Assembly (NCBI GenBank): GCA_965215015.1
Contig: OZ244042.1
Span: 4,896,001 to 4,960,000, forward strand
Direction: 5' to 3'
From: Candidatus Poribacteria bacterium
Lineage (GTDB): Bacteria; Poribacteria; WGA-4E; PCPOR2b
Length of the DNA stretch: 64,000 nt
The translations under genes and the position numbers were made by a program. Under the pieces are notes generated by a model. It saw nothing but the letters and a program-made list of their open reading frames with translations. It had not been told where the DNA came from and ran no database searches. This document shows positions 1 through 61,588 of the stretch, piece after piece. Every line of letters starts with the position of its first letter. Position 1 is the first letter of the stretch.

Positions 1-347
1 CTATACCCCGAAGGCGTTTGACTTACACGCAGCGTTAATCATGAGAACACTGCCTTACCTTACTTTTTTAGGCACAGGCGGGTCATAGAAGGGGTATTCA
101 AGGCCTTCCCACGTAGATTCACCTGTTCGGAGATAACGAGGCTTGCATCAGTTCAACTTTCGTTTCACCCTGTCACTCTAACCCAACGTTCCCATTTCAA
201 GGGTCTACCTTCCCTTTGAGGGATGCGCTGTTTCCCACTGCTTCCCACCCCGCCGTTTCCAGCGACGCAGTTGTGGTAAGGTTTATAGTGGTAAGTTCAC
301 CAAGCTGGAATTGAACCCGCATTGCACATTGTTACACAAGATCGCAC
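1..347 (-). mobile_element. Group II intron (IIB-like), 5' end/domain I; continues beyond the window's left edge
   Basis: Minus strand begins GTGCGATC at 347. IIB-like domain I motifs are present (GCGGGTTCAATTCCAGC; TGCGTCGCTGGAAACGGCGG...GAAGCA; AGCCTCGTT). Stem-loop at 29-53 displays CATGATT, complementary to the exon end AATCATG (EBS1/IBS1). TATCTCC at 129-135 is complementary to exon GGAGATA (EBS2/IBS2). Confidence 0.85.
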
Positions 348-363
348 CATGATTATCTCCTTA
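348..363 (-). promoter_or_regulatory. RBS plus ATG of the intron-interrupted gene (5' exon)
   Basis: Minus strand reads TAAGGAGATAATCATG directly before the intron's GTGCG. Confidence 0.75.
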
Positions 364-536
364 ATAACCAATGATGTTAGTTTACAACTGTTGATATGCT
401 CTCCGGTCAAAGACCGAGTGTGAAACGTGAAAACCATTTGTTCATCGGTTCACTCGTACATTAATGAACCTTTGAACTCAATATCCTCACTAACTCGCAC
501 CAAAGATTCAATAGTGCTATTTCAGTCGGAATGGGA

Positions 537-1259
537 TTAGTGCTTTCCGGTTAACGGAACAAAACGGACCGGCATCAACTGCCTCGTCATAATTGAACCC
601 GCTTCTGTTTTTTCTACAAGTGTCAAGTTCTGCAACTGGAAACGGCCACCAACCGGAATACACAATTTCCCACCCGGTTTCAGTTGACGTATTAACAGTG
701 GTGGAATATGATCCGGTGCAGCGGTGACGATAATCGCGTCATAAGGTGCATGTTCCTCCCAACCGAAGTAACCATCGCCGATTTTCACCGTCACGTTTTT
801 ATAGTCGAGCCGCTTCAGCCGCTTCTCGGCACTTTCGCCAAGTTCCTTGATAATTTCAATCGTATAGACATGATCGACCAACTCCGCTAAAACCGCCGCT
901 TGATACCCCGAACCGGTGCCCACTTCGAGCACCTTGTACTCTTTTTGAGGGTCAAGCAGTTCCGTCATATACGCAACGATATACGGTTGAGAAATTGTTT
1001 GGTCATACCCAATCGGCAACGGCATATCAATATATGCTTGGGATTTATAACGGTCAGGAACAAATTCATGACGGAGTACACGCCGCATCGCTTCCAAAAC
1101 GGACTCATTCTTAACGCCGATTCGACCATCCGTGATGCCCTTGGCATCAATCTGAGTTTTGACCATCCACTCACGATCGCTGTCGAAATCACCAATGCTA
1201 TGTGGAGGGATAGTGGTTAACAAGAGAAATGTGGTGAGCAGAAAAAAAAACTGTTTCAT
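537..1259 (-). CDS. pcm: Protein-L-isoaspartate(D-aspartate) O-methyltransferase with signal peptide
   Basis: QTISQPYIVA, VLEVGTGSGYQAA and APYDAIIVTAA motifs. Confidence 0.95.
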   Translation of the reverse strand: MKQFFFLLTTFLLLTTIPPHSIGDFDSDREWMVKTQIDAKGITDGRIGVKNESVLEAMRRVLRHEFVPDRYKSQAYIDMPLPIGYDQTISQPYIVAYMTELLDPQKEYKVLEVGTGSGYQAAVLAELVDHVYTIEIIKELGESAEKRLKRLDYKNVTVKIGDGYFGWEEHAPYDAIIVTAAPDHIPPLLIRQLKPGGKLCIPVGGRFQLQNLTLVEKTEAGSIMTRQLMPVRFVPLTGKH

Positions 1260-1295
1260 GATAGCCTCCTTGTTTGTTATAAAGGGTACGCTTTA

Positions 1296-3794
1296 TCAGT
1301 TCCTATCAGAGAAACTAGGGCGTGGGGGACGATCCATTCGGAAATAGACACATCCACCAATGAGATAAATCCCAATCGCCAAAAGAATCACGACGTTAAA
1401 GCCAAGTGCAATCGCCAGACAAGTTGCCAGAATCGCGCTCACGACTGACGCATAACCGTTGATGCTCCACGCCCAAGCTATCAGATGTGGCTGGTGTTTC
1501 TGCAGCCAATCTATACCTAACGAGAAGGGCATTCCCATGAAAAACGCTAAGGGTGCAATCAACCCAATCGATACAGTAATCTTCAGAACATCCGAACTTG
1601 CGAGAAAACGGTGAAAAATTGAGGGCAGTAGTTGCAAGTAAGCGAGCGCGAGGAGCGATAACATGCCGATAGCAAAGACAATCGGCTGTCGGCGCAGCCT
1701 CTTGACCCTCCTCAGTTTCAATGAGAAAAGGCTGCCCAAGCCCGCAAAGAGGAGAAACGCACACAACACAACCGCAACAGCGTACGTCGGATTTGCAAGC
1801 AATAGGAGAAACTTCTGGATGAACGACATCTCGATGAACATAAATCCAACCCCTAAGCTCAGAAAGTAACCGAACACTCGCCAAGTGGTCAAACGCGGGG
1901 TATGATTGGTGGGGAAGGTTGCTGCCCGCTTCAGGAAAAAGAGCGGGAGCAGAATCAAAATCAACCCCGCCAACCCCGCTTGAATCAGCGTTGCAATCAG
2001 AAGTAGATAGCCCCATTCGATAAACGGGATAGCACTTCTGCCAACCGTCCGAACCATCTGAACCAGTGAATCAAAGCGCAGGAATTGAAAGAAATATGGG
2101 CGATTATCAGTCGTGGGGCGGATATCGAAGGGATACCCTTCGTAAAATTGTTCCCGATCGTCAGACAGAATCGCTTGTGCAGCCCAAAAGTAAATCGGCT
2201 CCGCCAGCTGATTGTAACGATTGGCTTCCACCTCCGGCATCTGGGGGTAGTACGCCACATCGAAAGAACGCTCTCGGCAGAAATCCTGAATCGCCGCTCG
2301 GTCAGCAGTGTGGAAGTTTCCTTTTTTTAGCAACAGCGTACCAGTCCGCCAACCACGAATCATCGCCAACTGTTGAGCGGGTACCGCCCCATCAATCTGT
2401 TCTAACGCTTTGACTGTCGTTCCAAATAACCGAATCATGTCCCGCGGCGGAGTTTTCAGCCAACGCGTAATCGAAATAATACCCCCAGGTGTCAGATGTT
2501 GATACAGATCTATGATCGATTCAACTGTATAAAGGTAGCTCTCGCTCAGGGCGTGAGTCCCCGCAGCGGACGCATTGACGGAATCCAACAGTGCAATCTG
2601 AATGAGGTCGTACCGCTTCGTTGTTGCTCTCACAAATCCACGTGCCTCTGCAACGTGGACCTGTACCGGATAGGGTGAATCTGGTGCGTAAATCTGCCCG
2701 GCGAAATCGTTGTGCTGTTCCGCTACTAATTCAAGGACCTGTGGATTTAACTCCACCGCATCAACCGATACCGCGCCGTGATACAGAGCGTTGAGAACAT
2801 CTCCACCGCCACCAGCACCCAAAACCAGCACACGGGGCGGCTCAATCAGGTGATATGCCACTACCGACGTTGTATCCCCAAGATAACCCAACTTTGATAG
2901 GTCACCGCTGAAATCGGTAATCGCTGTCATTGCATCAGCGTCAGTGAATAAGCCTAACTGTGGTTGTACTTCATGCTGCGTATTCAGACTCAACCCCGGC
3001 ACCGCACGGATAAAACTGCTCCGAACCACGTGCAGCACACCGAGAGGACTATGCCGCTCATTCAGAATCTGTGCATCCGGAAAATTCAGTGCACTGCTCA
3101 ACCCTTTGTAGGGTGAAATCCTTATTGATACAGGATTGAACAGAAGATAGCCGATAAACGCAGCCGCAAATCCAGTTATTAGAGCAATACGCCGCCGATG
3201 TCGTACTTTCCAAATTCCCCAGCTGACAATCAGCACCGCACAAAATCCAATCCCTGAGACGAGAGTCAGGTTTTGTGCTGGAGGAATCAGGTACATGGTA
3301 AAAATGACGCCTAACGCCCCGAGACCGGAACCAAAGAGATCAAAAAAGTAGAGTCGATTGACATTGCCCGCGAACTGGAGTAACGCCAAACCGATGCAGG
3401 CTGCACCCCAAAAAAACGGAAACGATAGAATCAGATACAGCACGAAAAGCGACAGCACCTGGCTTGGCTGCCAAACCAGCATCAGTGGGTTGAACGGCAC
3501 ATATTGGTGCAGTATAAAACACCCAACAACACTGATCGAATAGAGCAATCCACAAATTGTGTAGACATTGTGAAAGCGTTGTCCGACTACGTCAGATTTC
3601 GACTGACTCCCCATCAGCCAACGTTGCGTAAGCGAAATCGCTGTCCCGCTGGCACCGAACCCAAGGAGTGCCAAGCTGATAATCATGTGCGCGAAATGGT
3701 GCCATTGCGCTATCGAAAATAAGCGTACCAGCGTAATCTCATAAGCGATGATTGAACCGGCTAGCAGAGCAACGGAGAGGAAATAGGAATTCAT
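1296..3794 (-). CDS. Multi-pass membrane protein with spermidine-synthase-like SAM-dependent domain
   Basis: N- and C-terminal TM bundles; VLVLGAGGGGDV, VDAVELNP, YDLIQIA, PTTDNRPYF, WAWSING. Confidence 0.8.
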   Translation of the reverse strand: MNSYFLSVALLAGSIIAYEITLVRLFSIAQWHHFAHMIISLALLGFGASGTAISLTQRWLMGSQSKSDVVGQRFHNVYTICGLLYSISVVGCFILHQYVPFNPLMLVWQPSQVLSLFVLYLILSFPFFWGAACIGLALLQFAGNVNRLYFFDLFGSGLGALGVIFTMYLIPPAQNLTLVSGIGFCAVLIVSWGIWKVRHRRRIALITGFAAAFIGYLLFNPVSIRISPYKGLSSALNFPDAQILNERHSPLGVLHVVRSSFIRAVPGLSLNTQHEVQPQLGLFTDADAMTAITDFSGDLSKLGYLGDTTSVVAYHLIEPPRVLVLGAGGGGDVLNALYHGAVSVDAVELNPQVLELVAEQHNDFAGQIYAPDSPYPVQVHVAEARGFVRATTKRYDLIQIALLDSVNASAAGTHALSESYLYTVESIIDLYQHLTPGGIISITRWLKTPPRDMIRLFGTTVKALEQIDGAVPAQQLAMIRGWRTGTLLLKKGNFHTADRAAIQDFCRERSFDVAYYPQMPEVEANRYNQLAEPIYFWAAQAILSDDREQFYEGYPFDIRPTTDNRPYFFQFLRFDSLVQMVRTVGRSAIPFIEWGYLLLIATLIQAGLAGLILILLPLFFLKRAATFPTNHTPRLTTWRVFGYFLSLGVGFMFIEMSFIQKFLLLLANPTYAVAVVLCAFLLFAGLGSLFSLKLRRVKRLRRQPIVFAIGMLSLLALAYLQLLPSIFHRFLASSDVLKITVSIGLIAPLAFFMGMPFSLGIDWLQKHQPHLIAWAWSINGYASVVSAILATCLAIALGFNVVILLAIGIYLIGGCVYFRMDRPPRPSFSDRN

Positions 3795-4938: not shown

Positions 4939-5146
4939 AGTTTAGCTCCTATCTTAATTTTAATATCAGGTTCTCCAATTATACCCATTCGGTGCATAAT
5001 GTCAATAAGAAAATGTAGACTCGACTTTCTTCTTCTTTGAGTCCCGTAGGTCGTGCATCTTGCCCAACCAGACTTATGAACCCATGAACAAATTGTTTTT
5101 ACGTTTCACGCTCTTCGCATACAGTCAATCGCGCGCTAAAATTTCC

Positions 5147-6660: not shown

Positions 6661-7367
6661 AACCGATTTCACTCCGATTGTTGGTAGGTCGGGCATCTTG
6701 CCCGCCTCAAAACCCCATTGATGCAATGGGTGTATTAGAGAGTTGATGACTGACAACGCAGCCCCTATGCCTCAGTGCGGTGCTTCGCTTCGCACTGCCG
6801 CCAAGCCTCTTTCCACCTATAGCGGGTGCCGGTCGAGACGGAGAGGCCAGCAAGCTTTGAAGGGGTTGGACGCCCCATTGGATCTGCACCGACGCCACCT
6901 TCGCAATGTCCACTCTCCTAAACCAGTTAGGTAACGTCGCAGCACCCGGGCGGATTTAAGCCGGAGGATAGGTCTGTCCCCATTGGGCAATGGTGCTATA
7001 ACTCCGATACCCAGACATAATCGCAATCACCGAGAGGGCAAGAAGCGTCCCCGGGGGTGCCCTTTCCCTTTTGCATTGCGCGAATCCGGAACTTCTGCTA
7101 AAATAGTTATCAAGTGACATGACTTGAGGGGAACATATTTCACCTCAAAAATTGGAGTCGGTTTTTCAGATGAAGTATAGCAGCTGCCGCGTGAACAGTC
7201 ACGTCGCACTTGTATGAAACACCGCCATATAGACAACATATTGCCCAAAACTAAATGACCCTATGTACTATTTGCACAGAAATATATCAATCCCGATACT
7301 TGTTCTATTTCCGATTGCCAAGAGATAAGGCCAATCTAAAAAGTAGCGTGAAGTGTAGAAAACAATT

Positions 7368-60679: not shown

Positions 60680-60955
60680 GAAAACTATTCTCTTTTTCTT
60701 TTTTTTAGGAGTTACGTATTTCAGTTGGGAACACCGATTGGTGTTCCCAACGGGATCCTTGATGGTGCACCCGCTGTAGCTGCCCGATTCAGCCGGCATT
60801 GGAAATTGTGCTCTGCGGCGATAAATCACCGAACTACAGCGGTTTGAATGAACCCATAAACAAATGGTTTTCACGCTTCACACCTGGTCTTTGACCGGAA
60901 AATGTATCAACAGTTGTAAACTCGTACCATTGGTTTTGTAGATTGGAGTGAATAT

Positions 60956-61512: not shown

Positions 61513-61588
61513 GCGCCTGTAGCTCAGGGGATAGAGCAGGGGCTTCCTAAGCCTCGTGTCGGGGGTTCAAATCCTCCCAGGCGCACCA
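61513..61588 (+). tRNA. tRNA-Arg (CCT)
   Basis: Acceptor GCGCCTG/CAGGCGC, D-arm AGCTCAGGGGATAGAGC, anticodon loop TTCCTAA, GGTTCAAATCC, encoded CCA. Confidence 0.96.

Follow-up and report, generated by a model that had tools for sequence, protein, structure and literature searches.

In bacteria, group II introns are said to stay out of protein-coding genes, in part because the ribosomes trailing the polymerase disturb ribozyme folding. How a complete intron of this type can lie directly behind the start codon of a conserved peptidase gene is the question raised by a 64,000-nucleotide (nt) stretch of a Candidatus Poribacteria bacterium genome (assembly GCA_965215015.1, contig OZ244042.1, positions 4,896,001 to 4,960,000). 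This whole stretch, G000:C1:4896001-4960000, is referred to below as the window. The host genome (G000) is a single contig of 5.94 Mb with 98% completeness; the left flank of the window was included in the analysis as part of locus L009, on which coordinates beyond the window are given. The explanation that we consider probable is that an intron of subgroup IIB lies between codons 1 and 2 of a pepF-type gene, that it was reverse-spliced there by pairing with the Shine-Dalgarno (SD) sequence and the AUG, that expression of the gene depends on its maturase-free splicing, and that it comes from a proliferated intron family. This explanation draws on the observed anatomy, exact site and reading frame, on covarying exon pairings, on a genome that lacks an intron-encoded protein (IEP) and on the selection acting on pepF.

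The intron is encoded on the minus strand, is complete and is 745 nt long, with the 5′ end at window position 347 and the 3′ end 398 nt past the left edge. Its first 347 nt, from domain I (DI) to the region of exon-binding site 3 (EBS3), occupy positions 1–347 of the window, and the rest (the end of DI, domains II–VI and the 3′ splice site) occupies positions 5000–4603 of L009. A search of the whole window alone at the Rfam gathering thresholds gave a tRNA as the sole match and no group II model, because domains V and VI (DV/DVI) lie outside the window. In a permissive Rfam search, the DI core at 154–304 (minus strand) matched RF02012 (group-II-D1D4-7) with 31.8 bits (E = 8.1e-5), slightly below the cut-off of 34. 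The initial annotation had proposed looking for DV/DVI and a 3′ AY to the left of the window; when the flank was added, RF00029 (DV/DVI) matched over model positions 1–77 of 77 at L009 4679–4603 with 64 bits (cut-off 40), and the intron ends there in UAC, 745 nt from its 5′ end. DV has the AGC triad and a 2-nt bulge; in the adjoining DVI, the branch A is bulged and located 7 nt from the intron 3′ end. The boundaries, 5′ GUGCG (343–347, minus strand, aligned with the 5′ ends of relatives) and 3′ CUUAC, fit the GUGYG/AY consensus, and the whole intron runs GUGCG...CUACCUAUACUUAC.

No open reading frame (ORF) of at least 80 amino acids (aa) was found inside the 745-nt intron, and tblastn detected no IEP remnants in it. 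The consensus structure of 12 ORF-less relatives contains 173 base pairs, 92 of them with compensatory changes, and the pepF intron forms 164 of the 173, its identity to the relatives that align end to end being about 66–69%. DI is ~435 nt long; its basal stem (alignment columns 8–14/426–432, intron nt 6–12 on the 5′ side) is followed immediately by the next helix, and the DI core begins 74 nt from the 5′ end; among the 117 copies whose 5′ end was mapped, this distance is almost always 72–77 nt. According to BLAST and RF00029 searches, the host genome contains one full copy, the pepF intron itself. In four public runs, all belonging to a single study, contigs span the 3′ exon, the intron and the 5′ exon with 0 differences; these contigs are possibly the assembly's own source and therefore give no independent support. 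The element is an ORF-less group II intron of subgroup IIB (chloroplast-like, presumably IIB1-type), and its structure is intact.

On the minus strand, window positions 362–343 read AAGGAGATAATCATG followed by GTGCG, so that the 5′ exon ends in AAGGAGAUAAUCAUG. The arrangement proposed in the initial annotation, with the intron 5′ end adjoining an SD sequence and ATG on this strand, is confirmed: GTGCG (347–343) is preceded at once by ATG (350–348), and AAGGAG lies at 362–357. The ATG, which corresponds to the start codon in 27 of 27 intron-less orthologues, closes the 5′ exon as its final three bases and belongs to intron-binding site 1 (IBS1), AAUCAUG (348–354, minus strand), composed of the spacer and the AUG. 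IBS2, GGAGAUA (354–360, minus strand), holds the SD core GGAG 6 nt upstream of the ATG, i.e., the SD itself is IBS2 in this intron. IBS2 and IBS1 are contiguous, with one A common to both.

As for the intron side of these pairings, EBS1 (CAUGAUU, 37–43, minus strand) is displayed in the 9-nt terminal loop (CUCAUGAUU at 45–37) of a hairpin with an 8-bp stem (53–46/36–29), and the stem columns 337–341/351–355 show compensatory changes. EBS2 (UAUCUCC, 129–135, minus strand) is located in a DI internal loop after the AAGCCUCGU motif; AGCCTCGT is read at 143–136, and UAUCUCC follows it at 135–129. Both complementarities that had been noticed in the window, EBS1 with AAUCAUG and EBS2 with GGAGAUA, are exact and are joined by covariation in relatives. 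By simple arithmetic, the chance of each such 7-mer match at a fixed place is ~4^-7. A candidate EBS3, the U of GGGGUAUAGUCA at position 3 (minus strand), pairs with the A that is the first base of the 3′ exon, and the homologous base can be recognized in relatives. Pairing of EBS1 and EBS2 with a contiguous IBS2-IBS1, together with an EBS3 away from EBS1, is the layout that defines subgroup IIB, and the pepF intron has it, with an internal loop for EBS2 and a terminal one for EBS1, a contiguous IBS2-IBS1 and a candidate EBS3 away from EBS1. Analysis with ViennaRNA duplexfold gave −12.3 kcal/mol for the 5′ exon with EBS2 and −7.3 kcal/mol with EBS1; the same 5′ exon gave −9.2 kcal/mol with the 3′ tail of the genome's own 16S rRNA (...GGAUCACCUCCUUU).

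In relatives having other targets, the EBS positions vary jointly with the 5′ exon, as exemplified by the EBS2/IBS2 combinations UUAGG/CCUAA versus UUGGG/CCCAA. At 19 junctions, EBS2 UUAGG or UUGGG and EBS1 CUAGCA accompany 5′ exons ending in AACCUAAGUUGCUAG or AACCCAAG..., and the introns L014, L015 and L018 combine EBS2 AGUUUG and EBS1 CGCACUU with the exon end CAAxCUxAAGUGCG. L046, the DI of which lies outside the DI-core census pattern, has EBS2 AGAUUG and EBS1 CGUACUU and follows CAAUCUGAAGUGCG. In L053, L022, L114 and L128, EBS2 ACUCC and EBS1 GUAGGCA (GUAGGUA in L128) correspond to GGAGUxUGCCUAC, and in L052, EBS2 CCUUU and EBS1 GUUACC correspond to AAAGGAAGGUAAC. Pairing between the candidate EBS3 (the central base of GGGGUAxAGUCA) and the base that opens the 3′ exon occurs in 23 of 28 copies; wherever this position is U, as in four copies including the pepF intron, the intron is followed by A.

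The 3′ exon, AGT AGT GAA AAT ACA AAC GGT TTA CCG ACA TGG GAT TTG TCG..., is in frame with the ATG, and the ligated exons encode M followed by SSENTNGLPTWDLSDLY... (at greater length, M followed by SSENTNGLPTWDLSDLYDG...). The expectation that the ATG and the 3′ exon would form an intact ORF was thus borne out: the pepF-type frame is open, and 27 of 27 orthologues agree with it. The host gene encodes an M3 oligoendopeptidase (pepF-like) of about 595–596 codons; all 20 genes of the genus have 595 codons. The ligated product matches TIGR02290 (M3_fam_3) with 626.7 bits (cut-off 561.7), the profile match starting from residue 10, and also the Pfam families Peptidase_M3 and Peptidase_M3_N. The gene is present in 28 of 29 genomes of the same bacterial family, G000 included, and in the 27 other genomes it is uninterrupted, with GGAG, 6 nt, the start codon (GTG in 25, ATG in one and TTG in one) and then AGC, AGT, AAC or AAA. 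Since all 27 intron-less orthologues start at the same point, the intron is placed precisely after codon 1 and before codon 2. In the IBS region, the sites of relatives (GGAGAAUACUGUG) and that of the host (GGAGAUAAUCAUG) differ at ~5 of 13 positions, and the intron pairs perfectly with its own host's version of the site, not with the relatives' version.

The last 11 codons of the intron are open in frame with the exon and contain no start codon, and the frame is closed further back. The pairwise ratio of nonsynonymous to synonymous substitution rates (dN/dS) of pepF against 19 congeners is 0.034–0.066, the median among the others being 0.044. The terminal-branch dN/dS is ~0.08 by a rough three-taxon estimate, compared with 0.037–0.096 in congeners, except one with 0.31. 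The pepF gene is under strong purifying selection.

Neither RVT_1 nor GIIM was found in the host genome (98% complete, one contig), the positive controls having fired, and tblastn of a relative's IEP against this genome gave a best E of only 0.54. Retrohoming calls for a reverse transcriptase (RT)/maturase encoded by the intron or present in the same genome, and the pepF intron has neither; it would therefore now be immobile and would splice alone or with host factors. From the intact ribozyme, the perfect pairings and the constrained pepF gene we infer that the intron is spliced and leaves the RNA without an IEP. GIIM is present in eight of 29 family genomes. In addition, five single-contig genomes (G051, G052, G047, G048 and G049) carry ORF-less or degenerate copies and no GIIM, G051 having six DI-pattern matches; introns without a resident maturase are therefore common in the genus.

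The following course of events would account for this locus. Reverse splicing would have brought the intron into the sense strand, with three pairings as guides: UAUCUCC (EBS2) to GGAGAUA, CAUGAUU (EBS1) to AAUCAUG, and the U of EBS3 to the base that opens codon 2. These pairings, formed again in the pre-mRNA, would keep the 5′ exon on the ribozyme, so that the SD and the AUG would be covered, and such masking would be expected to affect translation. Splicing would link the SD-AUG to the pepF reading frame; as it would restore this join, PepF synthesis would become splicing-dependent, and PepF is probably made only after splicing. The intron family would have proliferated within one bacterial family of Candidatus Poribacteria, and one of its clades would often have an SD-like IBS2 and land a few bases from start codons.

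To place the intron among its relatives, the genomes of the phylum were searched. Intron DNA matched 73 of 176 genomes, and the DI-core pattern matched 57 of 176; the reversed control gave 0. The 5′ ends were called for 117 copies, with flanks from most of the matches, and the 115 copies for which 20 nt or more of 5′ exon were available were collapsed into 70 site classes. This collapse is imperfect: L009 ended up in one class with L108 and L131 in one with L102, L130 was put together with an unrelated class, and L112 was mis-set. An SD core 4-mer (GGAG, GAGG or AGGA) at −16 to −5 occurs in 15 of 38 site classes from f1, the bacterial family of the host, in two of 32 classes from other families and at 7.7% of 200,000 random positions in the host genome. 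A quick maximum likelihood tree built from 60 DI sequences placed the SD-labelled rows of f1, 20 in number, all in one 37-row clade, the 16-row sister clade of which contains none of them. The pepF intron is an early, poorly resolved branch of the SD-rich clade (the support being modest and the rows kin, not independent).

With numbering from the A of the start codon (+1), the pepF intron is inserted after +3. Nine start-proximal sites besides it fall between 3 nt ahead of a start codon and 17 nt past it, and Pfam confirmed the gene at five of these. L190 and L191 (G049 and G048) share one site after +3 in a SelA/aminotransferase-V-like gene (ACGGAGGUUAUAAUG followed by GCU). L189 (G032) is likewise located after +3, AAGGAGAAAACAAUG being followed by AUU, and has EBS2 UAUCUCC as in the pepF intron; its ORF stops after 21 codons. 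L055 (G042; AAAGGAAGGAUAUGG followed by AC) is inserted after +4 in an Nramp-like gene, L196 (G031) inside an AUG after +1 of a 73-aa ORF with 0 Pfam matches, and L198 (G054) after +17 in a zinc alcohol dehydrogenase gene. Three introns precede the start codon: L192 (G031) directly, with an ORF that stops after 17 codons; L195 (G055) by 1 nt, in a short-chain dehydrogenase/reductase gene; and L052 (G056) by 3 nt, in a PhyH gene. Behind an SD sequence, the start codon closes the 5′ exon in L189 and opens the 3′ exon in L192; since their reading frames run for only 21 and 17 codons in the 3′ exon, both are unverified start sites. The common element of the start-proximal sites is an SD-like IBS2. 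As IBS2 and IBS1 are contiguous, insertion takes place ~13 nt beyond the leading G of GGAG, which puts it at the start codon or close by. SD-like IBS2 are also found inside genes (L194, L202), and many targets are unrelated, so the preference is partial. The initial annotation had proposed mapping further copies relative to start codons; relatives in other genomes are found after, inside and just before starts of other genes, but many others lie at sites unrelated to SD/ATG. An SD-directed intron sublineage is supported but not proven.

The further suggestion that many gene starts would be potential targets fails for the pepF intron, as the host genome contains no other perfect 14-nt target. 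One unoccupied perfect 13-nt IBS2+IBS1 match (GGAGATAATCATG) was observed at about G000:C1 3555035–3555047 (plus strand), at an apparent gene start; the next base there is G, whereas pairing with the candidate EBS3 would call for A. Beyond the phylum, a scan for an 18-mer (DI motif plus EBS2, with three degenerate letters) returned 70 loci, with ~140 expected by chance, and gave no relatives there, which does not show that the intron is absent elsewhere. Intron context was present in two of the 70 loci, both copies already known, and five others that were inspected are chance matches in protein-coding sequences.

It may be asked whether the intron is real but unspliced, in which case it would silence pepF or leave a TTG-started protein 13 residues shorter, the gene being intact since the insertion is recent. 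We regard this as unlikely, but a number of observations weigh against a splicing-dependent pepF or against its derivation from an SD-directed lineage. Bacterial IIB introns normally require their own maturase in vivo, and no RT/maturase is present in this genome. The public runs carrying the locus are four contig sets, none of them RNA; their contigs have no intron-less joint, which is uninformative on expression. The sole alternative start is an in-frame TTG, 13 codons (36 nt) into the 3′ exon and without an SD, from which a shortened protein is possible, and the low dN/dS of pepF is also compatible with a recent insertion. The only other intron trace in the host genome, L010, is decayed. 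The start-codon introns L190 (1–1243) and L191 (1–1875) are decayed as well, L190 being without most of DI and L191 starting with GGGCG. The dN/dS of their SelA-like host gene between the two species is 0.059. Both remnants hold TTGACA-17 nt-TATAAT, and their DVI contains AAAGGAG-9 nt-ATG ACC TAT CCA AAC directly before the exon and in frame with it, adding five codons; this suggests that the remnant has been reused as promoter, 5′ untranslated region (UTR) and new start. With the gene apparently served from within the remnant, splicing is not the sole survival route. As for the lineage, the site classes share descent, and the SD enrichment therefore does not represent independent trials; moreover, 17 of the 37 rows of the SD-rich clade are at non-SD-like sites, and the support of this clade is just SH-like approximate likelihood ratio test (SH-aLRT) 88.

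What speaks against an unspliced intron is its state of preservation. The 164 of 173 pairs, the intact DV/DVI and GUGCG are kept despite at least 31% divergence from all full-length relatives found, and the 13 contiguous EBS/IBS pairs are preserved together with EBS3-IBS3. The pepF gene is without relaxation, its terminal dN/dS of ~0.08 being within the congener range. A start at the TTG would lack an SD and would skip the residues LPTWD, which are conserved in most of the 27 orthologues. No in-frame start like that of L190/L191 was found within the pepF intron. The position at the start codon could instead be incidental, the element being an ordinary retargetable IIB1 intron with EBS drift and the SD-like IBS2 reflecting an inherited EBS2 sequence that has nothing functional to do with ribosome-binding sites; this is possible but rather doubtful. 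It would agree with the 16-row sister clade, which targets AACCYAAGUUGCUAG and CAAYCUGAAGUGCG, both unrelated to SD, and with SD-like IBS2 sites within coding regions (L194, L202, L198). Thermosynechococcus elongatus introns also split into EBS families, according to the available part of one account (PMC2882425). Chance retargeting does not readily explain an SD 4-mer in 15 of 38 classes versus 7.7% of random positions and two of 32 classes elsewhere, nor the 10 or more sites, in seven genomes, that lie between 3 nt ahead of a start codon and 17 nt past the first base of that codon. In addition, EBS2 UAUCUCC recurs in separate branches (L009, L108, L134) with differing EBS1. A splicing-dependent pepF intron that was guided to its site by the SD and AUG remains the explanation we favour. 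More tentatively, and with the balance tilted somewhat against it, Candidatus Poribacteria may harbour an IIB1-type clade with EBS2 as an anti-SD mimic, which would land near starts owing to the ~13-nt IBS2-IBS1 geometry and hide the SD and AUG until splicing, at least one copy splicing in vivo maturase-free.

The remnant L010 (G000:C1:4709001-4718500), the sole other intron trace in the host genome, comprises a 5′ piece (a 35-nt match, ~50 nt in all, after AAAGGAGAAACCGTG) and a possible 3′ end. The 5′ piece and a DV/DVI fragment lie at L010 positions 2229–2410 and 6769–6853, about 4.5–4.6 kb apart. The DV/DVI fragment (RF00029, 46.7 bits; a 35-nt piece of DV was matched) precedes the current start codon of hyuB, an ATG, by 215 nt. 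A duplicated fragment of the hyuB 5′ end begins ~110 nt after the 5′ piece, and the 5′ ends of both hyuB and a 1057-aa ORF are duplicated. The site resembles the hyuB start of two congeners (GAGAAACCG-ATG vs. GAGAAACCGTG), but this homology is too weak, and L010 was not counted as a start-codon site.

ORF-carrying relatives of the pepF intron encode proteins of 579–598 aa with RVT_N, RVT_1, GIIM and HNH domains (TIGR04416, 355.9 bits). The IEP of the relative L052 is most similar to PDB chain 6me0_C over its whole length (E = 1.5e-91, twice the next bit score); other group II RT structures gave E = 1.9e-45 or weaker, and the pepF intron itself has no IEP. Chain 6me0_C is presumably the T.el4h maturase of T. 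elongatus, and the link to this species depends on that assumption; if it holds, L052-type IEPs would stand nearest to the TeI3/TeI4 introns of T. elongatus.

T. elongatus introns are classed as IIB1/CL1 (chloroplast-like 1) in the consulted sections of Gomes et al. 2025 (PMC12584367), where a monophyletic proteobacterial IIB1 family located in or next to initiation or termination codons is also described, with reference to Michel et al. 2007. As stated there, all members of this Avi.groEL/EcKTE56.groEL-type clade carry a subdomain Ia of 300–700 nt near the DI 5′ end, and how they find start or stop codons is said to be unknown (PMC12584367). The likeness to the pepF intron, by that description, consists of a ribozyme, here presumably IIB1-type, at start or stop codons of conserved genes, where splicing restores the gene; unlike the members described, the pepF intron is without subdomain Ia, is ORF-less, resides in an IEP-less genome and belongs to another phylum. 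It does lie at the initiation codon of a conserved gene. That it is simply an ORF-less member of this clade appears very improbable to us, even with what is presumably a common broad subgroup (IIB1/CL1-like, judging from relatives' IEP) and the same habit of sitting at the initiation codon: the clade is given as proteobacterial with a 300–700 nt subdomain Ia in every member (PMC12584367), while here the host is Candidatus Poribacteria, the DI basal stem closes at intron nt 6–12, and the core is 72–77 nt from the 5′ end. The kinship suggested by the initial annotation therefore stands for the start-codon behaviour and fails on the missing subdomain; the pepF intron is like the clade in behaviour, and membership is not shown.

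The TeI3/TeI4 introns of T. elongatus (CL/IIB1; Mohr et al. 2010, PMC2882425) are a second point of comparison. As here, ORF-less derivatives proliferated and EBS lineages diverged, some copies lying in essential and tRNA genes, but the ORF-less copies of T. elongatus coexist with IEP copies that mobilise and splice them, and the available part of that account mentions no SD or start-codon preference (PMC2882425). According to the portion of Zimmerly and Semper 2015 (PMC4424553) available to us, ORF-less bacterial introns are nearly always found beside a related IEP, C.te.I1 of Clostridium tetani being the sole known exception. Like the pepF intron, C.te.I1 is ORF-less in an IEP-less genome, and protein-free splicing has been proposed for it (PMC4424553); unlike the pepF intron, it lies between surface-layer protein ORFs, with alternative splicing, and not at an SD or start codon, as far as the part of the description available goes (PMC3919590). 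The dnaN introns of Trichodesmium erythraeum are also ORF-less and located in a housekeeping gene whose expression depends on splicing; in contrast to the pepF intron, they rely for splicing on an IEP that a related intron of that genome encodes and are not at the start codon, by the summary in PMC12584367. In the openly accessible main texts covered by the search, no SD-pairing EBS2 or Poribacteria intron was found described beyond the clade of PMC12584367.

Upstream of the intron, the nearest gene is pcm (537–1259, minus strand), which encodes protein-L-isoaspartate O-methyltransferase (PF01135, E = 8.5e-69). Window positions 1–1400, from pcm to the intron inclusive, contain 0 terminator-like sites, and a promoter scan of the same region gave weak promoter-like matches only (5 vs. 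2.2 expected). A dispersed repeat of ~150 nt (361–508) is inserted ahead of the SD, behind the stop codon of pcm. It has matches genome-wide, nearly all of the 41 genome matches to window positions 1–600 being within 361–508, and is absent here in relatives, several of which read ...aaatagcattattgaGGAG or ...attattgaGGAG without the repeat. Another copy of the repeat was observed at about 60846–60935 of the window (minus strand), and short-read contigs break within the repeat.

Several further arrangements were observed among the related introns. In genomes of bacterial family f4, the intron 5′ ends of eight loci (L141, L146, L150, L154, L165, L173, L187 and L153) are located 7–12 nt past a −10 box TATAAT (sigma-70-type), most of them with a TTGACA-like −35 box 17–18 nt ahead of it, so these introns would begin near the 5′ end of their own transcripts. 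A box of the TACACT/TATAAT/TACAAT type lies 11–15 nt upstream of L157, L170, L171 and L177. Introns L028, L140, L151 and L179 are inserted in the D-loop of tRNA genes, after GCGCCUGUAGCUCAG(G/U)GGA(U/C/UU)AG; the 5′ exon of L028 and L151 equals the first 22 bases of the uninterrupted window tRNA at 61513–61585. L178 follows a tRNA 3′ part. Twintron-like arrangements were seen in L118/L121 (G054:C1:2980747-2981600), with a second 5′ end inside DI (in L118 just past the EBS2 region), and in L144 and L161, where the 5′ end of a second intron lies just past the GUGGGAAGCA core, inside the DI of another copy.

An intron located at the start codon, with the ribosome-binding site held in its own EBS pairing, would avoid the conflict between ribosome and ribozyme. 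Translation initiation would then hinge on RNA catalysis, which would amount to a built-in switch testable by simple reporters. The pepF intron would also be one more instance of an independent ORF-less intron in a maturase-free bacterial genome, and this would bear on how introns turned splicing-only in organelles and, by extension, in eukaryotes. Its relatives seemingly show the later fates of such introns, namely decay into a 5′ UTR with its own promoter and a new start codon.

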